Assembly (NCBI GenBank): GCA_963797095.1
Contig: CAWCNY010000004.1
Location: forward strand, 256,001 to 320,000
Length of the DNA: 64,000 nt
DNA from: an uncultured Chloroflexia bacterium
Lineage (GTDB): Bacteria > Chloroflexota > Chloroflexia > QHBQ01 > JADMIH01
Reading direction: 5' to 3'
This document shows positions 20,042-63,812 of the stretch, in pieces; the stretch's first letter is position 1, and each line of letters opens with the position of its first letter. A model generated the notes under the pieces. That model was not told where the DNA came from. It worked only from the letters and a program-made list of their open reading frames with translations, and did no database searches. Position numbers and translations under genes: made by a program.

Positions 20042-21200
20042 CTCACCTTACGCAGCCGAGGGGCTGCATGGTAGACTAAAGGGATGACGAACAAGGAACT
20101 GCTTGATCTGTGCACTGACTACCTGATAAGCTCTTCTGGCCAGACCACAGGCACGGGCTTGAGTGCATTGCTGGGTGGGAGCGTCAGCCATGACCGCATT
20201 CAACGCTTCCTCTCCAAGGGAGAGTTCACCTCCGCTGATCTGTGGCATTTTGTCAAGCCTCATGTGCGAGCCGTTGAACAGGAAGAGGGGTGCATCATCG
20301 TGGACGACTCCATCTCCGAGAAGCCATACACCGATGAGAACGACATCATCGCCTGGCATTATGACCACTCCAAAGGCACTAAGGCACTAAGGCACTACCG
20401 TAAAGGGCATAAATGTCCTCTCGGCCTTGTACCATGTGCCCCAGTTGGAGGTATCGTTGCCTGTTGGTTTTCGGTTGGTAAGAAAGACTGAGCAGTATGT
20501 GGACCCTAAAGACGGCAAGACCAAGCGGCGCGATCGGGTCAGCAAGAACGAGCACTATCAGGCGTTGTTGCGGCAAGCTAAGCACAACGGAGTGCTGTTC
20601 CGCTTCGTGCTCAACTTCGTGCTCAACGATGTGTGGTATGCCTCGGCTGACAACATGCGCTTCGTCAAGACAGAGTTGGAGCGGGACTTCATCATGCCCC
20701 TCAAGACCAACCGCAAGGTAGCTCTGAGTGAGGGGGACAAGAGGCAGGGTCGGTACATGCGTGTGGACAGTGTGCCGCTAGACGGGTGAGGTGCGGACGG
20801 TCTATCTTGAAGGAGTAGACTTCCCCTTGGCACTGTGTAAGCAACTCTTCGTAAACGAAGATGGTAGCCAAGCCACCCAGTATCTGGTGTGCTCGGATGT
20901 GACATGCACCCTCGACCACCGCCAAATCACCACAATCTATCAGAGACGGTGGAACGTGGAAGAGTACCACAAATCGCTCAAGCAGAACGCCTCTTTGGAG
21001 CGCTCGCCGACCAAACGGTGTGCACCCAGACCAACCATCTGTTTGCCTCTTTGTGTGGCTATGTCAAACTTGAACTGTTGAAAGTGTCCAACCATCTCAA
21101 CCACTTTGCTGTCAAGAGCGCTATCTACTTGCGTGCCATGCAGGTTGCCTTCGATGCCTTCCGTCGCCTCCAACCTGTTCGCCTGGCTGCGTAAGGTGAG
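20042..21200 (+). mobile_element. IS701-like insertion sequence with frameshifted DDE transposase
   Basis: Perfect 16-bp TIR CTCACCTTACGCAGCC (20042-20057 / 21185-21200). 7-bp flanking direct repeat TTACCAG (20035-41, 21201-07). Fragments DYLISS...HDRIQRFL, IVDDSISEKPY, DVWY, YQRRWNVEEYHKSLKQN. Confidence 0.9.
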
Positions 21201-30587: not shown

Positions 30588-32486
30588 ATGTACGTACTTG
30601 GTACCGCAGGCCATGTAGATCACGGCAAATCAACTCTAGTGAAAGCTCTCACAGGCATCGACCCTGACCGCCTCCGGGAAGAGAAGGCGCGCGAGATGAC
30701 CATAGATCTGGGCTTCGCCTGGCTTACCCTCCCCTCCGGCAAAGAAGTGTCAATAGTGGACGTACCCGGCCATGAGCGGTTCATCAAGAACATGCTGGCG
30801 GGTGTAGGTGGCATCGATGCAGCACTCCTCGTGATCGCCGCCGATGAAGGTCCAATGCCTCAAACCGAGGAGCACCTGGGCATTCTCCACCTCCTCGGCG
30901 TTGAACGCGGCGTAATCGTCCTAACCAAGATCGACCTGGTAGATCTTGACTGGATAGGCCTAGTTCAGGAGGAAATTCGGGAGCGCGTGCAGCAAACCAC
31001 GTTGGCCCGGGCCCCCATCGTGCCTGTCTCAGCTCGTACCGGCCAGGGTCTACCCGCACTTCTCAATGAGATCGACCGGGTGCTAGCCGGTACGCACCCT
31101 CGCACCGATCGTGCCGAGCCGCGCCTATCCATCGACCGTGCTTTCACAATTTCAGGCTTCGGCACTGTAGTGACGGGCACGCTCATTGATGGCACTCTCC
31201 ACGTGGGCCAGGAAGTTGAGATCGTTCCAGGCAACCTCAAGACCCGCATCCGAGGCTTACAAAGCCACAAACACAGGGTCGAAAGCATTGGGCCCGGCAA
31301 TCGTGTGGCGGTCAACCTCGTTGGCCTCAATGTCGATTCGATAAGACGCGGTATGGTACTTGCCCTCCCAGGTAAGGTGCGCTCTACCAGGCGAGTCGAT
31401 ATTCACCTCCAACTACTACCCGACGCTCCTGCTCCACTTGGGCAGAACGATCCACTCGACTTCTTCACGGGATCAGCCGAAACGCCAGTGCAGGTCACCC
31501 TCCTCGACACCGAGCGCCTCGAACCCGGCAGCACCGCCTGGGCGCAACTTCGCCTGCGCGACGAAATTGCCCTCGTAAAAGGCGACCGCTACATAGTGCG
31601 TCAGCCATCGCCAAGCCTCACAATAGGCGGAGGGTCCGTGATTGATCCTCATCCCAGGCGACACAAACGCTTCCACGAAGAGACGCTCAAGAACCTGGAG
31701 ACACTCGAAATTGGCGCGCCCAATGAACTGCTTCTACAGGCACTCGGTAACGCGCCACTGGACGCCAGGACCGCCATCGAACGATCTGGCGTGGACAAAG
31801 GAGAGGCGATCTCAACCATCCAACAACTCATCACCGAAGGCCACATTATCCAGCTTACAGGCGACAAAACTACCACACTGAATCCTCAATCCACAGCGCT
31901 CTACATCAAGACGGCTGCATTCGAGGAGACTATACATCGTGTGAGCGATATGCTAGCCCAATACCATCGCCAGAATCCGCTGCGAAGTGGCATGAGCAAA
32001 GAGGAATTGCGCAGCCGCCTCTCGACTTCCACGCCATCCATCCCACCAAAAGCGTTCCCATACATCATGGCCCTCGCCGTCGCAAAAGGCGCGATTGCCG
32101 AAGAAGCCACTACTTTCCGGCTGCCCAGTCATGGTCCCACATATACCCCTGCACAGGAAGCCCAGTTGCGAGCGTTTCGCCGCGCCAATGCGGACTCGCC
32201 GTATTCGCCGCCCTCTCCCGCCGAATTGGGCATCGATCAGGAGGTTCTTGCTTCCCTTATCGAAAGCGGTGAGGTGATCAGGATAGACGACCTTTACTAT
32301 ATGCGCCCAGTCTTCGATGAGATGAGAGCTCGTATTCTGACCACAATTGACGAGAAGGGCGAGATCAACGTAGCCGGGATGCGCGAACTCTTCGGCACGA
32401 CCCGCAAATACGCCATCCCCATACTGGAGTATCTGGATCAGCACAAGATCACGCGCAGGGTCGGCGATGTGCGTGTGCGTTGGTAG
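30588..32486 (+). CDS. selB: Selenocysteine-specific translation elongation factor
   Basis: GTAGHVDHGKS, DPDRLREEKAREMTIDLGFA, DVPGHERF, C-terminal winged-helix TRKYAIPILEYLD. Confidence 0.97.
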   Translation: MYVLGTAGHVDHGKSTLVKALTGIDPDRLREEKAREMTIDLGFAWLTLPSGKEVSIVDVPGHERFIKNMLAGVGGIDAALLVIAADEGPMPQTEEHLGILHLLGVERGVIVLTKIDLVDLDWIGLVQEEIRERVQQTTLARAPIVPVSARTGQGLPALLNEIDRVLAGTHPRTDRAEPRLSIDRAFTISGFGTVVTGTLIDGTLHVGQEVEIVPGNLKTRIRGLQSHKHRVESIGPGNRVAVNLVGLNVDSIRRGMVLALPGKVRSTRRVDIHLQLLPDAPAPLGQNDPLDFFTGSAETPVQVTLLDTERLEPGSTAWAQLRLRDEIALVKGDRYIVRQPSPSLTIGGGSVIDPHPRRHKRFHEETLKNLETLEIGAPNELLLQALGNAPLDARTAIERSGVDKGEAISTIQQLITEGHIIQLTGDKTTTLNPQSTALYIKTAAFEETIHRVSDMLAQYHRQNPLRSGMSKEELRSRLSTSTPSIPPKAFPYIMALAVAKGAIAEEATTFRLPSHGPTYTPAQEAQLRAFRRANADSPYSPPSPAELGIDQEVLASLIESGEVIRIDDLYYMRPVFDEMRARILTTIDEKGEINVAGMRELFGTTRKYAIPILEYLDQHKITRRVGDVRVRW

Positions 32487-32537
32487 CCCTATGCTATAAT
32501 GTCCAGGCCAATCTATCACTTGCAGGAGTACAAAGCA

Positions 32538-33383
32538 TGAGTGACAACACCGGGAGCGCTAGTGCTCCTGCTGCCGAAACGAGCGAGCCGAAGAGCCTGG
32601 AGTGGGCTCTCATACTGGGATCATCTTCAGGTTTTGGGGCCGCCACCTCCATTGCCCTCGCCGAGCAGGCAGGCCTCAATGTCTGCGGCGTCCACCTGCG
32701 TCGCCCAACCGATCAGGATATGTTCGAGGAAGTCAAGTCGCGTATCGAAGCGGCGGGAACTCAAATACATCCCCTTCAACATGAACGCCGCCAATCCCGA
32801 CCGCCGGAAGGATGCCCTCGACAAGATGGCCGAAGCAATGGACGGCTCAGGCTTCCGGGTGCTTCTCCACTCCCTCGCCTTCGGCACCCTCAAACCCTTC
32901 GTAACTCCCAACCCCGAAGACTCAATCCAGCAGCCCAGCATGGACATGACCCTCGATGTGATGGCCCATTCCCTCGTCTACTGGGTACAAGATGCCCTTC
33001 AACGAGGTATGTTGGGGCGAGGCAGCCGCATATTTGCGATGACCTCCGCAGGATCGCACCGCATCGTTCCCAACTACGGAGCGGTGTCAGCGGCCAAGGC
33101 CTCACTTGAATCGCACATTCGCCAGCTTGCCGCCGAACTTGCACCACGCGGCATAACCGCCAATGCAATCATGGCGGGCGTCACCGACACCCCCGCGCTC
33201 CGCCGCATACCTGGCAATGAACGACTCGTGGAGGGCGCTTTGGCCCGCAATCCCTCCGGCAAACTCACCCTTCCGACCGATATAGCCAACTTTATCGCCC
33301 TCCTCGCCAGGCCAGGCTCAGGGGCCGATTGGCTAACCGGCAACGTAATTAACGTTGACGGTGGCGAAGACATAATGGGCTAG
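32538..33383 (+). CDS. Enoyl-ACP reductase FabL-like SDR, with a 1-nt frameshift at ~32758
   Basis: LILGSSSGFG in one frame. HSLAFG and YGAVSAAK in the other. Deleting one A gives AAGLKYIPFNMNAA. Extended -10 TGCTATAAT at 32492-32500. Confidence 0.85.
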
Positions 33384-33387
33384 TCCG

Positions 33388-33416
33388 TTGACACCACTGG
33401 CACGATCCGATACACT
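33388..33416 (+). promoter_or_regulatory. Sigma70-type promoter of the TlpA-rhodanese operon
   Basis: TTGACA (33388-93), 17-nt spacer, TACACT (33411-16). Confidence 0.7.
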
Positions 33417-33477: not shown

Positions 33478-34296
33478 ATGAGCAAGACGGCATATTCCAA
33501 AACACGGCCCCCATCTCGGCCAGCACCTGCTCGTCCTAGTCAAGTTGACGATTACGACGATGTACAGGAACCCATACGACCTCGATCCCAACGCAAGCAA
33601 TACGACGAGGAATACAATGAGAAATACAATGAGGAAAACGAGGATTACGAGGATTACGACGGCTACTACGCGGACGATGAGGAAGTTGCCGTAGTCTCCA
33701 TAAACCGGCGCGCTGTCGCGCTCTCAGTGTCAGCTATACTCGTGGTCGCGATCTTTGGCGTAGCAATCTGGCTCCTGATGTCCAGGAATAGCGTCCAGCA
33801 ACCTGCGGAGGGCCGCCTGACAGATATCCCAACCATAACGGGCTTCAACCCGGCCACCGCAAGCGAGGCCCAGGCCCCCAATAAAGGCTCTCCCGCACCT
33901 GATTTTGAGTGGCCTGAGAACGGATCTAGCGTGTCGCTCTCCTCCTATCGAGGCGATAAGCCCGTTTTCGTGAATTTCTGGGCCACATGGTGCCCTCCCT
34001 GCAAGGCGGAAATGCCCGAAATAGAGAACATATATAACACGCATAGGAACGACCTGGAGATTATCGGCGTCTCCATGGGCCCCCGAGACTGGCCCCAGTT
34101 GGTCCTCGACTTCGTCAATAAGACTACGTACAGTTGGAAGTTTATCCATGATGGCGATTATGGCATTGCCACACGCTACCAGGTGGTGAGCATCCCAAGC
34201 TCGTTCTTCATTGACAAGAACGGCGTCATCCAGGCCATCCACGTCGGTCAAATGGACCAGAGCATGATGGAGAGCTACTTACAACAGATTCAGTAG
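33478..34296 (+). CDS. Membrane-anchored TlpA/ResA-family thiol-disulfide oxidoreductase
   Basis: One TM segment, APDF, NFWATWCPPCKAEMP, cis-Pro IPSSFFID. Confidence 0.92.
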   Translation: MSKTAYSKTRPPSRPAPARPSQVDDYDDVQEPIRPRSQRKQYDEEYNEKYNEENEDYEDYDGYYADDEEVAVVSINRRAVALSVSAILVVAIFGVAIWLLMSRNSVQQPAEGRLTDIPTITGFNPATASEAQAPNKGSPAPDFEWPENGSSVSLSSYRGDKPVFVNFWATWCPPCKAEMPEIENIYNTHRNDLEIIGVSMGPRDWPQLVLDFVNKTTYSWKFIHDGDYGIATRYQVVSIPSSFFIDKNGVIQAIHVGQMDQSMMESYLQQIQ

Positions 34297-34350: not shown

Positions 34351-35115
34351 ATGAGTCAGCTTCCAAAGCGGAGGCCACCCGCAGGTCAGGGTCAGAACCG
34401 ATCCCAAAGTCAGCGGAGGTCAGACCCCTACGCCGAATACCCACCACCTAGCAGACGTTCCGCTGGGCCGCCACCGCCCGGTGGCCGGTATTATCAGCAG
34501 AGGCCAAGAGCGGTCTACCCCCAGCGCGACCCCTTTCCCTACATCCTGGGTGGCCTAATCGGCGCGATGTTGGTCGGCCTGATGTTGGTCATCTTCCTTT
34601 TGATCAACAATAACAACGGCACCACCGCAGTACAGAACCGAGCCACCACTGGCAACACTACCACAACTGACCAGACCACAGGTGAGACCACAGATGACAC
34701 ACCACCGCGCATGTCGATGGACGACTTCAAGGCGCTCTACGACGACCCCGCAAAGCGCCCCATGATCATTGATGTGCGCCCATCTGATGCCTATAATGAG
34801 GGTCACATTGCGGGCGCGGTTTCCATGCCAGAAGACGATATCGACATTCTGCTCGATAAGATCCCCAAGGATTCACTCGTCATCGCGTACTGTCAATGAC
34901 CGGCCGAAAATGAAAGCGCCCGTGTGGCGCAAAAGCTACATGAAGAATATAATTACAGCTACGACAATCTGAAGGTGCTCCTCGGTGGTTGGACTGCGTG
35001 GAAAGATCAGAATACAAACAACCCGACAGGCTATCCAATCGAAACGGGTGGATCAACCGCCCCCACTACACCTCCTAAGGTGGTCATCACACCCAGCACT
35101 GTGATCACTCCATAA
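34351..35115 (+). CDS. Membrane-anchored rhodanese-domain selenoprotein (CxU; UGA 34897-34899 read as Sec), 254 aa
   Basis: IIDVR...GHIAGA...AYCQ-TGA-PAENESARVAQKL...KVLLGGWTAW. The rhodanese domain is complete only if the UGA is read through. SECIS-like hairpin at 34916-34930. selB is nearby. Confidence 0.88.
34916..34930 (+). promoter_or_regulatory. Putative bacterial SECIS hairpin
   Basis: GCGCC-CGTGT-GGCGC starting at +17 after the UGA, with a GU-containing loop. Confidence 0.55.
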
Positions 35116-35140: not shown

Positions 35141-35169
35141 GTATGGGCGGGCCTAAACCCGCCCATACA
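35141..35169 (+). terminator. Intergenic hairpin between the two rhodanese genes
   Basis: GTATGGGCGGG / CCCGCCCATAC 11-bp stem, no U-tract. Confidence 0.45.
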
Positions 35170-35207: not shown

Positions 35208-35945
35208 GTGGATAACCAGCCAAGAGAACACAAACCGGTACGGCATATCAGGCCTGACCATAAAGGGGATCACCACGACCAACAATCTCGGCGTGCAAAT
35301 ATCGCAAAGCACGATCCTTTCCCCTATATGATTAGTGGCCTCATCACCGCCGCTGTGCTCGGCCTGGTCCTCGTCGCCTGGCTCCTCATCTCACCGGGTA
35401 GCACCGGCCTTCCCCTAGCACCCGCTCCAACCGCATTCGCGAACGCCCCATTCGATTTTCCTACTTCCGCGATCCCGATCCCTGCCGGCGCCGCAGCGCC
35501 GGGCGATGTGCCGACCCTTGAGGTTCCAACCCAGGATATCGCTCTCCCGCCTCCCGAACCCACCGGCTCACCTCCCCCCGCCGACGACCCGCCACGTATC
35601 GCCCTCGGTGACTTCAAGGCCCTCTACGACGACCCGTCAAGTCGACCCCTGATTCTTGACACTCGCAATGAGCAAGCATACTCGGAAGGCCATATACCGG
35701 GTGCGGTACTTTTCCCCGCTTCTGACGTGGTAAGCAATGTTGTCACGCTTCCCAAAGACAGGCTGATCGTTGCCTACTGCCAATGACCGGAGGAACACAC
35801 CAGCGCCAGTGTGGCGCGGCAGTTGAAAGAGCAGTTCGGCTTCAGCTATGGCTACGTGAAGGTCCTGCTTGGCGGCTGGGATGCCTGGGCCACAAAGAAT
35901 TCGCAGGACCCCGCCGGATACCCTATCGCTACAGGTGATAAATAG
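35208..35945 (+). CDS. Second membrane-anchored rhodanese-domain selenoprotein (CxU; UGA 35784-35786)
   Basis: ILDTR...GHIPGA...AYCQ-TGA-PEEHTSASVARQL...KVLLGGWDAW...GYPI, ending at TAG 35945. Start GTG 35208 (GGAG upstream) or ATG 35169. Confidence 0.88.
35800..35819 (+). promoter_or_regulatory. Putative bacterial SECIS hairpin
   Basis: CC-a-GCGCCA-GTG-TGGCGC-GG. The core stem starts at +17 after the UGA, as in the paralog. Confidence 0.55.
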
Positions 35946-58883: not shown

Positions 58884-59532
58884 CCTTGGCCTTGCCTTCC
58901 ACGTTGCGCTCAACCCACTCGGCCCACTTCGCCGCCGCTCTATCCCGCTCGCTCGCCGGTCCTGATGGATCGTAGCCTCCCAGCAATTCATTGAGCTTGT
59001 CCCAGGTCCGTTCGGGGTACTTCATTCCCGAAACGACTTGCTGGATAATCGTGTAAGCCTTCCAGCGGGTAGCCTCGTCATGTGATTTCAACAGTGGCAC
59101 AACAAAAGGCAGCGCTTTCGGCCCCTGACGCGAAAGCTCGTTGACCGACAAAGAACGGTCTGAATGCAGCACATCGGGAGCGTCGTTGATCGTCTCCACC
59201 AGCGCCGGAAACCCGCGAGGGTCGTCCATACGCGTCAACCCAACCGCAGCCTGCGAGCGCACACCGCCGTCCTTATCCTTGAGGGCAGCCGCCAGGTCAT
59301 CGGCGGTCGAGGGGTCCGCAATCGAGGCCAGACCTTCGGCGGCCAGGGCGCGCACCTCCTTGTCGTCGCTATGCAGCGCTTTCAGCAGCGCGGGAATCGC
59401 CGGCTCGCCTCGAGTGATCAGCTCGCCCAGTGCAAGACTTCTCATCTCGGCATCGTCTGAGCTAAGCTCCTCAATAACCTGCTCAGGCGGCCCACCCAAT
59501 CTTCTTACTTTTTCTTCGTAAGAACTGCTCAT
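58876..59532 (-). CDS. HEAT-repeat protein
   Basis: Repeated AIPALLKAL.D.EVRALAAEGL units. ATGA overlap with the upstream gene. Confidence 0.88.
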   Translation of the reverse strand: MSSSYEEKVRRLGGPPEQVIEELSSDDAEMRSLALGELITRGEPAIPALLKALHSDDKEVRALAAEGLASIADPSTADDLAAALKDKDGGVRSQAAVGLTRMDDPRGFPALVETINDAPDVLHSDRSLSVNELSRQGPKALPFVVPLLKSHDEATRWKAYTIIQQVVSGMKYPERTWDKLNELLGGYDPSGPASERDRAAAKWAEWVERNVEGKAKDG

Positions 59533-61433
59533 GGCGTGCCCGCTCCCTTAGCCGCACCTGCGGCAGGTGCGGCTGGCGTTGTATGCTTGAAGGTTACGTC
59601 CACGCGCCTGTTTCCGCGCCTGTTGGCTTCCAGGTCCTGGCCCCTCGAAGGGTCGGCGTCCAGTGTGAACTCATCAGTGGCTCCCCCACCCCTCACCGCG
59701 AAGCCATCAATACGCGCAGCAACGATCCCCTTGGCAACCAACGCCCGGTACACTGTGTTGATGCGCCTAGTAGCAAGCTTCTCATTGTACGTTCCGCTGC
59801 CGCCCTTGATATCCGCAAAGCCCAATATATCAAGCTTCACGTCGGGGAAACGCCTCATATAGTCCGTGAACGTATCGATCTTGCCCTCCTCGGTGGGCGA
59901 CAACGTCGACTTATCAAATTCAAAGTAGAATGTGACAGGCTCGTGCACATAGAAGTCTCGGTGCTTCTCCATTGCCGAATCGAATGTAGCCGACTGCGCA
60001 TCTGTGAACGTCTGGTGCTCATTGATGATATGTGCGCCTTTGGACCTCAGGCCGAAGCCCCACTTCACCGAACCATAGATCTGCATCGTATCGTCCGATT
60101 TGGCAACAAACTCAAATTCAAAGTCTAGATCACCCGGCCCGTTGAGAGTACCCGGCAAGTCCCAGAGACCAGCCGCTTTGATATCAGCCGGATCGTCTGA
60201 ACGCTTGAACCCGAACGTCGGTGTGAATGCGTAGTATGGCGACAATGCTTGTCCCTTCTTTGAGGGGTCCAGATGGTATACATCCGTGGCAAAACCGCCT
60301 TCAATGCCTTTAGCTTTATCTTCGGTGGTACGAACATGTGGCTCGGTAGCAGCCGGCAAGGAGAATGGTGCATGTCCGAGGGCACCTGTCTTCGCGTCTT
60401 TGTTCCTGGCGATCTGTATCATTCCGATTTTGTTCGCGTAAGGAGCTGTCTTATAAGGCATGAACTTAATATCACCAAAAAGGCCATAGTGCTTAGACCC
60501 CCGCACTAACCCGCCATCGTTAGTCGTCATCCCCATAATGAACTCGCCTTGCGTGAGAGGGTGTGTGCCAGTGAGCGAGCGCTGGATTACCACTGGCCCT
60601 CTGCTTCGCAAGCCACCCAGCCCTGCTCCCGCATAGCCGGTATCGGTCCGTCGCTGTACCGCCACATCGGTCCCTCCATCACGCATCGTCTGTACCGCCG
60701 TCCCCAGTTCTTCCTCTTCCGGCTCTTGAGCGCGTTGGACCGGCGCGGCTGCCACTGCATGTGCCCCTGTAGTCTCGGCTGGGGTGCCTGATAATACATT
60801 CTGCGCTGACCGCTCGGCAGCCTGCTCGAACTGGTCAGATGGGTCGCTTACCGACACCCCTCCTGCCGTTGGCGTGCCTGCTACAGGCCCCTGTGACTGC
60901 TGCACAGTATGCGTTGCCTCGTGCGCCAGCAAGTGCAGCCCTCTGTCGCTCCCTGGCTCGTATGCCCCCTGCCTGAAGAAGATATCACTCCCTGTGGTAA
61001 ATGCCACCGAATCGACGGAGCGAGCCAGCCTATCCGCATCTCCGTCCGTGTGTACTCTCACCCCCGACAGGTCCGCCCCCAACCCGCCTTCCAGCCTTGT
61101 TCGCGTACCTGGGTCCAATGCTCTTCCCATACCAGTCCGCGACCCTATCTGCTCTGCCAGGTCTTCCTCGGCGTGCGCTACGCTCCGCTGCACCCTCAAG
61201 AAACGCTGCACCGCCCGGTTCCCGTAGCTCTGTTGCAAACGCTGAAGCATGGCTGCGCGCACCGGGGCATTGCCCCTCCCACGCAGAGCATTGCCATCAA
61301 AAAGAGTGCCCGGATATGCAGCCTCAAGCTCCGAGGCAGGAGCCACTTCCTGCTCTCCCATCAGCGGCGCAGGGTGCTCCACCTGATCGGTTTTGCGGGT
61401 GGCCGCTACATCGTGGTCAAATTCCTCAGCCAT
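59529..61433 (-). CDS. DUF4157 (eCIS core domain) protein with C-terminal OmpA-like domain
   Basis: GADLSGVRVHTD...AFTTGSDIFF...LLAHEATHTVQQ. FEFDKSTL...GFAD...YNEKLATRR...NRRVDV. Confidence 0.88.
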   Translation of the reverse strand: MAEEFDHDVAATRKTDQVEHPAPLMGEQEVAPASELEAAYPGTLFDGNALRGRGNAPVRAAMLQRLQQSYGNRAVQRFLRVQRSVAHAEEDLAEQIGSRTGMGRALDPGTRTRLEGGLGADLSGVRVHTDGDADRLARSVDSVAFTTGSDIFFRQGAYEPGSDRGLHLLAHEATHTVQQSQGPVAGTPTAGGVSVSDPSDQFEQAAERSAQNVLSGTPAETTGAHAVAAAPVQRAQEPEEEELGTAVQTMRDGGTDVAVQRRTDTGYAGAGLGGLRSRGPVVIQRSLTGTHPLTQGEFIMGMTTNDGGLVRGSKHYGLFGDIKFMPYKTAPYANKIGMIQIARNKDAKTGALGHAPFSLPAATEPHVRTTEDKAKGIEGGFATDVYHLDPSKKGQALSPYYAFTPTFGFKRSDDPADIKAAGLWDLPGTLNGPGDLDFEFEFVAKSDDTMQIYGSVKWGFGLRSKGAHIINEHQTFTDAQSATFDSAMEKHRDFYVHEPVTFYFEFDKSTLSPTEEGKIDTFTDYMRRFPDVKLDILGFADIKGGSGTYNEKLATRRINTVYRALVAKGIVAARIDGFAVRGGGATDEFTLDADPSRGQDLEANRRGNRRVDVTFKHTTPAAPAAGAAKGAGTP

Positions 61434-62111
61434 CTCACACGCTCCATTTCTACCCGCCAGCGCGCTCCCTACTACGGCAATTTGTGACGCTTGCTAAGGC
61501 CGGGCGTGAATATCACGCAACGCTCATCTTCCCTTGCCATCGTCGTCACCGGCGTGCCTCTGTGCCGCCATTCCAGCGCGTATACTCTGCACAGACAGTT
61601 CCTCCCCCTCCGGCATACCGGCCCGTTGCACAGAGGCCGCGTAGGTGGACGACCTCATCGTTTGGACTAACTCGTCTTCTTCTCCCTCCCGTTGCACGAA
61701 GGTTGAGTAGGTGGACGACCTCATCGTTTGGACTAACTCGTCCTCCTCTCCCTGCCTCTGCACCTGGGCAGGGTTCGAGCCTCCACCTCCGCCACCGGCG
61801 TTAGCAGACTTCCCGGCCACCACGTTCCGCGCTGACCGCTCGGCAGCCTGCTCGAACTGGTCAGATGGGTCGCTTACCGACACCCCTCCTGCCGTTGGCG
61901 TGCCTGCTACAGGCCCCTGTGACTGCTGCACAGTATGCGTTGCCTCGTGCGCCAGCAAGTGCAGCCCTCTGTCGCTCCCTGGCTCGTATGCCCCCTGCCT
62001 GAAGAAGATATCACTCCCTGTGGTAAATGCCACCGAATCGACGGAGCGAGCCAGCCTATCCGCATCTCCGTCCGTGTGTACTCTCACCCCCGACAGGTCC
62101 GCCCCCAACCC
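60803..62111. repeat. 283-bp identical direct repeat (60803-61085 = 61829-62111) encoding DUF4157
   Basis: Base-by-base match at offset 1026. A second identical 59-bp block: 61229-61287 = 62267-62325. Confidence 0.9.
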
Positions 62112-62474
62112 ACCTTCCAACCTGGTCTTCGTGCCGTGATCCAGTGGATTTCCCCTGCCTGCTTTCGAGTCGATCTGCCCCGCCAGGTTCTCTTCCTCAA
62201 TTGCCGTTGGTGTCGCTGCGCTACGCTGAGCGCTCAGTAAGCGCTGTAAAGCGCGATTGCCATACGTCTGTTGCAAACGCTGAAGCATGGCTGCGCGCAC
62301 CGGGGCATTGCCCCTCCCACGCAGACCTTTGGCAGCACTCGGTGAAATGACGCCTGCCACATCCGGCTCACTCTCCGAGCGCACTTGCGACGGTATTTCC
62401 GTGCTCTTCACGCGCACGCGCTCCTGTGCCGCTCTGTTCGAGCTTTCCAAGTCGAAATCGTTACTGTTGCTCAC
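61524..62474 (-). CDS. DUF4157 protein with acidic VQR repeats and no C-terminal domain
   Basis: Near-identical DUF4157 sequence, followed by VQR(Q/E)GEEDELVQTMRSSTY repeats with a 66-bp period. Confidence 0.85.
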   Translation of the reverse strand: MSNSNDFDLESSNRAAQERVRVKSTEIPSQVRSESEPDVAGVISPSAAKGLRGRGNAPVRAAMLQRLQQTYGNRALQRLLSAQRSAATPTAIEEENLAGQIDSKAGRGNPLDHGTKTRLEGGLGADLSGVRVHTDGDADRLARSVDSVAFTTGSDIFFRQGAYEPGSDRGLHLLAHEATHTVQQSQGPVAGTPTAGGVSVSDPSDQFEQAAERSARNVVAGKSANAGGGGGGSNPAQVQRQGEEDELVQTMRSSTYSTFVQREGEEDELVQTMRSSTYAASVQRAGMPEGEELSVQSIRAGMAAQRHAGDDDGKGR

Positions 62475-62537
62475 GGCTAACCCTCCATTTTGACGCGTTC
62501 ATTTCCCATCGTGACTGCGAAACTGGCAAGACTCCAG

Positions 62538-63812
62538 CTACTTTGTGCCAGATTTAGCACCTGCGGAGATAGCGCTTCCGATACCACCCACGGCACCCGA
62601 AGTAGCGCCACTTGTGTCGCCCGCTCCTCCTGCGCTGCTAGGTGGAGGTACATGCGATACGTTATACCCTATTGCGATTGAAATTGCCGCGGCCGTACCT
62701 GCATCGCTTACAAGCTCTTCGAGCGGCACTTGCTTGCCCATCTGGTCAAGCAATAGTCTCTCGACGAATTTAAGTGCCCCAACTACCTTCCCCATACGAT
62801 TGTTAATATCCGGATCGAACATGCCTAGTATTTCATTACCTTGCATCATTTGTTGAGCGCGCTTGAGGTCCTCGGCAGCTTCAGCAATCTGCGCCTTCTT
62901 TGGATGACCACGCAATAGCTTGGCAGCCTTTTTCATAGGCTCGGTCACGGTGCTCTTCCATAATCGAGCCGCCAATGGATTGTCAGCCACCGGGTCTGTG
63001 CTCTTTTTGCCCAGCCTGCCCTCAGCTTCCTTCTCCATAAGCAGATTTCCTAGCACCTCAGCGTCGTCGATCTGGCCCTCTATTGCCATGTCTAGACCTG
63101 TGATATCTTCCTTGCCGGGGATGTGCGTTTGCAGCCCAGCCTCTATAGCGACGAGTCTGTTGTTCATCTCGCGCAGTTGCCCGATCACTATGGTATCCCC
63201 GTCGGCCTCCTCCAACCCTTCCTTCAACTCGCGTATTATATGTCGAGCATTCTTTACATCAGATAGCAACTCCTCAAAGGCACCCACTTCCGGTTTCTCC
63301 GTACCTTCCAGCCCGCGCAACCGTTCAACCGCCTTGTCCAATGGCCCCTGCACCGACGCTTTCCACATGTTGTCAATCATCGGATTATAGTTTGAAGCCC
63401 TAATCGCCCCGTTTATGGCACTCCCAATTACGCTGCCGATCTCCCCCAACTCCCCCATTACCGGCTTTGCGGCGTCGCCAATCACGGGCAAGTTGCCGAC
63501 GACATCTGATACTGCCGTCGTCGCGTCTCCAACTGCCGATGCTACTGCATCTAATTCCTTATTGCCGGTGTGGAAATAACGCTGAACAGCGCGGTTGCCC
63601 TGTGTGTGCTGGAGGTTCTGCATCATAGAGATGCGCACCGGACCATTGCCCCTCCCGCGGAACTTGGCGGGGTCATACGGAAGGCGAGGGCGATCTGCCG
63701 TGTGGCTTTCGGCCGCCCGGTTCGGCTCACTATCGCGCACCATCGAATGCTCTCGACGCGCTTCAGTATGTTTTCGTTTGCTCCGTTCGTCTTCGAAATC
63801 GAAATCGCCCAT
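62538..63812 (-). CDS. Hypothetical helical protein with the shared GNxPVR...GNRAVQR leader
   Basis: FRGRGNGPVRISMMQNLQHTQGNRAVQRYF. Two NP...WK..V..P helical repeats. GGGAG RBS. Confidence 0.78.
   Translation of the reverse strand: MGDFDFEDERSKRKHTEARREHSMVRDSEPNRAAESHTADRPRLPYDPAKFRGRGNGPVRISMMQNLQHTQGNRAVQRYFHTGNKELDAVASAVGDATTAVSDVVGNLPVIGDAAKPVMGELGEIGSVIGSAINGAIRASNYNPMIDNMWKASVQGPLDKAVERLRGLEGTEKPEVGAFEELLSDVKNARHIIRELKEGLEEADGDTIVIGQLREMNNRLVAIEAGLQTHIPGKEDITGLDMAIEGQIDDAEVLGNLLMEKEAEGRLGKKSTDPVADNPLAARLWKSTVTEPMKKAAKLLRGHPKKAQIAEAAEDLKRAQQMMQGNEILGMFDPDINNRMGKVVGALKFVERLLLDQMGKQVPLEELVSDAGTAAAISIAIGYNVSHVPPPSSAGGAGDTSGATSGAVGGIGSAISAGAKSGTK

Follow-up and report, generated by a model that had tools for sequence, protein, structure and literature searches.

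The in-frame UGA at positions 35784–35786 (plus strand) of the window, the 64,000-nucleotide stretch of Chloroflexia DNA analysed here, is very probably recoded as selenocysteine (Sec) by the standard bacterial route, a reading to which comparative sequence evidence gives a probability of about 0.95. The gene that carries it, copy 2 (35208..35945, plus strand), would encode a membrane-anchored rhodanese-domain selenoprotein of 245 aa with Sec193, running from a GTG start to a TAG stop in a frame interrupted only by this TGA. YCQ precedes this TGA and PEE follows it, and the 52 codons that the sequence-only reading had placed downstream were borne out by counting, all being sense codons closed by the TAG at 35943–35945. 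The GTG at 35208 is the start given in database entry P0003 (192 aa, ending at YCQ) and also matches the start of P0004, the closest homolog. A paralog, copy 1 (34351..35115, plus strand; 254 aa, Sec183), lies upstream, its domain sharing 54–55% identity with that of copy 2. As had been noticed at the outset, the TGA of copy 1 (34897–34899) aligns in the same column as that of copy 2, and in both copies a hairpin begins at +17 after the TGA (34916–34930 in copy 1, 35803–35817 in copy 2). The proposal of a selenoprotein with a conserved SECIS element is now strongly supported by the near-universal TGA, by the frozen codons of the hairpin and by the selection acting downstream of the TGA, as described below. 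The two copies are separated by a further hairpin (35141..35168, plus strand) with a perfect 11-bp stem, a folding energy of −23 kcal/mol for the 45-nt region and no U tail on the plus strand, which may be an attenuator or mRNA-stabilising stem that lowers or stabilises copy 2 expression.

Two protein searches yielded 172 proteins that were kept, and a genome scan found 352 relatives, of which the best 80 were examined. These fell into 79 loci: 27 Chloroflexota genomes, for the most part labelled Chloroflexia, contributed 42, and 37 Acidobacteriota genomes, chiefly Pyrinomonadaceae/Blastocatellia, contributed the other 37. Together with the two of the window, these 64 genomes provided 91 homologous domains. 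The scan pattern stopped short of the TGA column, where the query had a Cys, so that any bias would favour Cys forms. Among these best 80 of 352 relatives, TGA occupied the Sec column in 90 of the 91 domains, from two phyla, and TGC in one. Of the 67 database proteins sharing 50% identity or more with the domain (the window's own entry included), 65 stop exactly at YCx (61 at YCQ), the remaining two being P0042, a full-length Cys form, and P0135, a downstream piece called as a separate ORF. Some protein homologs, P0042 and P0046 among them, carry Cys at the Sec column, so that the UGA aligns with Cys in homologs and homology runs past the stop, as is asked of a bacterial selenoprotein. P0149 and P0166 are further close relatives of the Cys form. 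In 48 Chloroflexota domains (one divergent domain omitted, here and for the pS values below), pN/pS was 0.32 for the part before the TGA and 0.31 for the part after it; purifying, coding-type selection is thus equal on both sides. The databases do annotate these proteins as ending at the TGA, and an apparent 1-base frameshift in a nearby window gene indicates that the assembly contains errors, but a genuine stop, whether from a sequencing error, in a pseudogene or in a functional truncated protein, is scarcely credible given a TGA shared by 90 of 91 domains in two phyla (best 80 of 352 relatives), equal purifying selection on the downstream part and the loss on truncation of Pfam model positions 70–101, including two helices and a strand. 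The stop common to the tandem copies had itself been taken to make a chance nonsense mutation or sequencing error very unlikely; two copies alone are suggestive only, and it is the 90-gene set that is decisive.

Two other ways of accounting for the TGA were considered. A gene caller predicted a 44-aa C-terminal piece in a close homolog (P0135), as would be expected of a split gene that stops at the TGA and restarts at a GTG within the hairpin; this arrangement is nevertheless next to impossible to reconcile with the family, where just 40 of 90 genes have GTG as the restart codon and 46 have GCG or TCG instead, and where the amino acids lying between the TGA and this codon are conserved (Glu +3 in 89/90, Ser +6 in 90/90). 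Reading of the UGA as Trp or Cys via an alternative code or suppressor is also highly improbable. Trp does stand at the Sec column in two database homologs, P0093 and P0097, for which gene calling under table 4 is the likely cause, but 12 hand-picked long window genes, which stay open under table 11 over 7441 codons, contain 78 TGG codons and in five cases terminate in TGA, a second TGA terminates 16 of 91 family ORFs, the UGA column aligns with Cys in homologs and selB is adjacent. P0093, P0097 and P0134 are homologs of full length whose residue in the Sec column is Trp or Arg, and all three are likely to be table 4 gene calls or single-base changes of TGA. Recoding as Sec therefore remains the preferred reading, and the codon preceding the TGA (35781–35783 in the window) showed a synonymous bias over all loci – CAA for 43 of 44 Gln, TCT for 28 of 32 Ser and GCT for 11 of 13 Ala – that may be a context effect on recoding. 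One locus in the sample, L017, carries a single ORF in which each of two rhodanese domains contains an in-frame TGA (L017:10199 and L017:10682).

The candidate SECIS hairpin of copy 2 (35803..35817, plus strand) spans +17 to +31 after the TGA and consists of a 5-bp stem (35803–35807 with 35813–35817, that is +17 to +21 with +27 to +31) and a loop N-G-U-N-N (35808–35812) with an invariant G35809 and a near-invariant U35810. The hairpins of copies 1 and 2, both 15-base inverted repeats, differ at a single loop base, which is non-synonymous (Ser vs Arg). Degenerate codons for the same amino acid were identical between the copies at 4/4 positions in the hairpin, against 3/9 upstream and 4/17 downstream, in agreement with the initial observation that synonymous sites are identical there while the flanking DNA has diverged; the spacer between TGA and hairpin also showed identity at 2/2 such codons. 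This conservation extends across orthologs, with a pS of 0.010 in hairpin codons +6 to +10 compared with 0.62–0.74 elsewhere in the 48 Chloroflexota domains. Specifically, all 89 alanines at codon +7 are encoded by GCC, codon +9 has G as its third base in 89 of 90 genes while specifying six amino acids among them, and codon +8 is CGT in 54, GGT in 23, AGT in 12 and CGC in one of the 90 genes, so that Arg, Gly and Ser alternate with the G-U kept (G at +23 in 90/90 genes, U at +24 in 89/90). These amino acid changes at codon +8 recur across the family tree (a quick tree with SH-aLRT support).

The helix pairs in 97.6% of 450 cells over the 90 genes, a value reached by none of 500 shuffles, with slid registers giving 23–60%, and RNAalifold predicted the same helix unaided with a consensus energy of −8.6 kcal/mol. 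A stem G-C to C-G swap, made through a switch of Ser codon, was present in 12 genes and a G-U wobble in 17. Covariation across orthologs, put forward as a check in the sequence-only reading, is thus found in part: the swap is compensatory, but the 12 genes form one clade (SH-aLRT 88) and so count as a single event, and the four inner stem pairs are conserved, not covarying. In single-sequence folds, the mean pairing probability of these four inner pairs exceeded 0.5 in just 56 of 90 genes, and the copy 2 hairpin was no stabler than its shuffles in three windows (z = +0.36, +0.83 and −0.85), so that the evidence for a SECIS is comparative, not thermodynamic. Folding energies on a 28-nt stretch were −11.7 kcal/mol for copy 2 and −9.1 kcal/mol for copy 1. 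Below the 5-bp stem, no pairs were conserved among the 90 genes, and closure of the loop by a +22/+26 pair was dismissed as a trait of the family, pairing there being possible in only 28 of 90.

The hairpin could in principle be a by-product of an S-A-x-x-A protein helix and codon bias in a protein that does contain Sec. Ser +6, Ala +7 and Ala/Val +10 fix many of the stem bases, and there is just one independent compensatory event; however, synonymous-codon identity at +7 to +10 was 0.95–1.00, against 0.26–0.31 expected from the codon use of the same genes, and the loop G-U stays while the amino acid varies. The motif is also lost in Cys forms, being present in none of four TGC genes, only one of which (L075) is of related lineage, the other three being distant with a shorter loop. 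For these four genes, the answer to the question raised at the outset, whether the hairpin is equally conserved in Cys-encoding homologs, is no. Of the four regions taken as Cys controls, three have a Cys-x-Cys loop and one (L080) failed to match the pattern. At the protein level, residues compatible with the hairpin motif were found in 3 of 11 Cys-form proteins as opposed to 89 of 90 Sec forms (14 Cys-form motifs were inspected, three from two proteins of different loop length being excluded). A search of plasmids for relatives returned only distant rhodaneses, mostly under 40% identity. Finally, the second TGA-bearing domain of the two-UGA protein, L017:10682, is without the motif and instead rebuilds, at the same place and from unrelated sequence, an 8-bp hairpin with a G-starting loop. 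A by-product of the protein helix is accordingly very unlikely, and a function of the hairpin as SECIS is the reading retained here. Over 1.1 Mb (window plus fetched loci), no TGA outside the family was followed by the hairpin at the family offset, nor was any among 44 looser matches, 12 of which were viewed and none found to be gene-like.

The sequence-only reading had raised the possibility that the element sets the form of SECIS employed in this lineage, which, as a claim of a new form, is not supported. In PMC13188914, the bSECIS model is described by a 3–9 nt apical loop on a 4–16 bp upper stem, a G at loop position one or two with G or U usually next, a UGA-to-loop spacing of 16–37 nt and a folding energy of −7.5 kcal/mol or lower. 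The family hairpin agrees with all four descriptors (5-nt loop and 5-bp stem, loop G-U, 21 nt spacing, energies of −11.7 and −9.1 kcal/mol), the same element occurs in 41 of 41 TGA-bearing Acidobacteriota genes (best 80 of 352 relatives), and L017:10682 uses another hairpin. As in the E. coli fdhF-type SECIS, whose loop G-U is the SelB site according to PMC8659212, the element lies within the coding sequence just past the UGA and presents a G then a U in a small apical loop on a short stem. It differs from the fdhF-type element, as described in the same source, in placing the loop G-U at 26–27 from the U of UGA in place of 23–24, a shift of one codon, and in having neither an equivalent of the bulged U17 nor a conserved lower stem (PMC8659212). 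By these comparisons, the hairpin is best regarded as a conventional bacterial SECIS common to two phyla and not as a new lineage-specific form. The Moorella SECIS crystallised with SelB has a five-base loop as well.

The genome also encodes SelB, as expected where Sec is used. The selB gene (30588..32486, plus strand), 3.3 kb upstream, specifies a Sec-specific elongation factor with intact winged-helix domains and scores 352 bits with TIGR00475 (cut-off 242). Within the PDB, the C-terminal part of this SelB comes nearest to the SECIS-binding fragments 1LVA/2UWM, 2PLY and 1WSU; 1LVA, 2UWM and 1WSU are from Moorella thermoacetica (PMC4605307). No selA, selD or tRNA-Sec was found in the 64-kb window (ARAGORN, Rfam at gathering thresholds, long ORFs by eye), and no tRNA-Sec in the 60 of 79 loci scanned. 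Directly upstream of copy 1, tlpA (33478..34296, plus strand) encodes a membrane-anchored TlpA/ResA-like thioredoxin with WCPPC, and is probably the first operon gene and the redox partner of the selenoproteins; a candidate sigma-70-like promoter precedes it (33388..33416, plus strand; 10 of 12 match, a consensus match only). Among the best 80 of 352 relatives, 23 of the 42 Chloroflexota loci have a tlpA-like gene in the same orientation no more than 2.5 kb upstream, and 8 of the 42 have selB no more than 6 kb upstream, many contigs being short. Fusion of TlpA to the Sec domain is seen in L005:2633 and in P0005, P0007 and P0061, these last three belonging to the 65 truncated database proteins. 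Between selB and tlpA, a FabL/FabI-like SDR gene (window about 32500–33383, plus strand) is split over two frames, with one extra base near 32758–32762 relative to intact homologs in L006, L008, L012 and L035, which points to an assembly error or a recent frameshift. Elsewhere in the window, three tandem paralogous ORFs with an N-terminal RGRGNxPVRxxM, two of which share a long repeated segment, were observed at 59529–63812 (minus strand), and an ORF at about 20084–20500 (plus strand) resembled a transposase fragment by eye.

The surroundings of the Acidobacteriota genes were of another kind. Within 10 kb, 21 of 37 Acidobacteriota loci had a PhsA-like molybdo-enzyme (14), an Fe-S/NrfD subunit (17) or an MBL-rhodanese fusion (11), and none of these neighbours was seen in the 42 Chloroflexota loci (best 80 of 352 relatives in both cases); all of these sulfur-metabolism neighbours scored below curated cut-offs (PhsA 201 vs 694). 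In the Blastocatellia loci L043–L078, a cluster adjoining the gene for a Sec-rhodanese lipoprotein (e.g. L056:838–9697 and L067:2064–9638) comprised a PhsA-like molybdopterin enzyme with no obvious Tat leader at its start, a fused Fe-S/NrfD subunit and an MBL-rhodanese fusion. Other Blastocatellia loci in this range contained an 882-aa double FAD-reductase and a sulfate/thiosulfate-binding protein.

The rhodanese domain of copy 2 (35610..35894, plus strand; aa 135–229) was assigned by Pfam, by an AlphaFold model (pLDDT 95.7) built from a 47-sequence alignment, and by Foldseek, the best matches of the model being rhodanese domains with TM-scores of 0.7–0.8 to solved ones. The Pfam Rhodanese match (PF00581) scored 55.8 bits against a gathering threshold of 22.2 and covered model positions 4–101 of 102 on read-through, but only 4–69 if cut at the TGA. 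Copy 1 likewise yields a complete rhodanese domain when its TGA is read through. In the alignment, Cys191 falls at the usual catalytic Tyr-Cys position and Sec193 two residues on in the active-site loop, which is acidic and about two residues longer than in 3TP9. Beyond the domain, copy 2 has a long N-terminal tail, a predicted single transmembrane helix (35337..35393, plus strand; aa 44–62, with three K/R before and none after) and a Pro-rich linker. From hydropathy and charge, the protein would adopt an N-in/C-out topology with the rhodanese domain outside the cytoplasm. In line with this, 44 of 47 Chloroflexota proteins have more K/R on the N-terminal side of the helix than on its C-terminal side. 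Of 84 5'-complete family ORFs, 82 carry a hydrophobic anchor or signal, 23 of them with a lipobox-like pattern, as judged by crude tests with mechanical start choice. The Sec-rhodanese domain also caps unlike N-terminal parts in P0005, P0007, P0013, P0018, P0062, P0068, P0116 and P0168, among them a zinc-finger anti-sigma-like part plus TlpA, repeat domains and large predicted lipoproteins. It appears to behave as a mobile C-terminal module, and up to six such domains were seen in one genome.

Rhodanese-like selenoproteins with a CxU motif have been catalogued as form 3, NF041203 rhodanese_LYCAU (PMC13188914) and as COG0607 form 2 (PMC9312934). The window proteins share with NF041203 the fold and the Tyr-Cys-x-Sec motif, and it is the top NCBIfam match of both copies and is matched by 47 of 47 aligned domains. 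Scores nevertheless fell short of its cut-off of 115 bits, at 67.3 and 72.7 for the two copies (C written for U) and 68.9 for the domain alone, and none of 23 Acidobacteriota relatives or 11 other homologs reached it (best 113). The NF041203 model has 126 positions, to which copy 2 adds its N-terminal tail, membrane helix and Pro-rich linker. On these sequence features, the window proteins look like a separate extracytoplasmic subfamily of CxU rhodaneses. Sud of Wolinella is periplasmic with a role in polysulfide respiration, according to PMC10925157. The present family resembles Sud in having a rhodanese domain probably outside the cytoplasm and in the PhsA/Psr-like genes that adjoin its Acidobacteriota members, and differs in its Cys-x-Sec pair, its acidic loop and the tlpA and selB genes that adjoin it in Chloroflexia. 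Sud uses one Cys. Proteobacterial DedA/rhodanese fusions (Cys-x-Cys) share a Tyr-Cys-x-Cys-Pro loop and a membrane-attached rhodanese domain, but have a Cys codon, a loop one residue shorter and no hairpin, at about 35% identity. The proteins also stand apart from GlpE/PspE-type thiosulfate sulfurtransferases, with 20 bits in the GlpE model (cut-off 102) and a longer, acidic loop. Exported bacterial selenoproteins as such are already known, for example SaoB and SaoX (bioRxiv 10.1101/2022.07.06.499078). No description of this subfamily was found in the literature on Chloroflexia/Blastocatellia selenoproteins or CxU rhodaneses, most subscription papers being outside the search; the BSepDB supplement lists Chloroflexia and Blastocatellia genomes, so that these genes may already be catalogued there.

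The delivery of Sec by SelB and Sec-tRNA follows established steps. In copy 2, SelB with Sec-tRNA would bind the G-U of the five-base loop, 21 bases past the UGA, and hand Sec to the ribosome, leading to read-through at codon 193. The product would be a single-pass membrane protein whose rhodanese domain faces outward and bears a Cys-x-Sec pair on its active-site loop, where a Cys-Sec selenenylsulfide may form during the cycle and be re-reduced by the co-encoded, sometimes fused TlpA-like thioredoxin. In a characterised rhodanese, the thiosulfate-binding loop is positively charged (PMC10925157), unlike the acidic loop that follows Sec here, which makes a classical thiosulfate:cyanide activity doubtful. 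From genomic context, the most likely job, tentatively proposed, is that of a surface sulfane-sulfur (persulfide/polysulfide) carrier or transferase with a Cys-Sec pair reset by TlpA. A peroxide or disulfide reductase is a possible second candidate, selenium capture for Sec synthesis seems rather unlikely, and metal or metalloid binding more unlikely still. A broader conjecture, itself improbable on present evidence, is that Chloroflexia have appended an almost exclusively Sec-encoded surface module, beside selB and a thioredoxin, to many exported proteins, and that this module captures selenium or sulfane sulfur as a Cys-Sec adduct and feeds Sec synthesis, being a main reason why the Sec system is kept. 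If true, the module would make these selenoproteins agents of selenium acquisition outside the cytoplasm, a role that our literature search did not find described for bacterial rhodaneses.

The recoding mechanism itself is textbook. What the analysis corrects is a family-wide annotation error, in which 65 database proteins stop at the Sec codon and lose both the end of the fold and the catalytic Sec. It also widens the CxU rhodanese selenoproteins to include forms in Chloroflexia and Blastocatellia that are putatively membrane-anchored or lipoproteins. The restriction of one codon to xGT would further represent an unusually clean natural case of a SECIS dictating protein sequence, and may offer a ready reporter substrate for SelB specificity.
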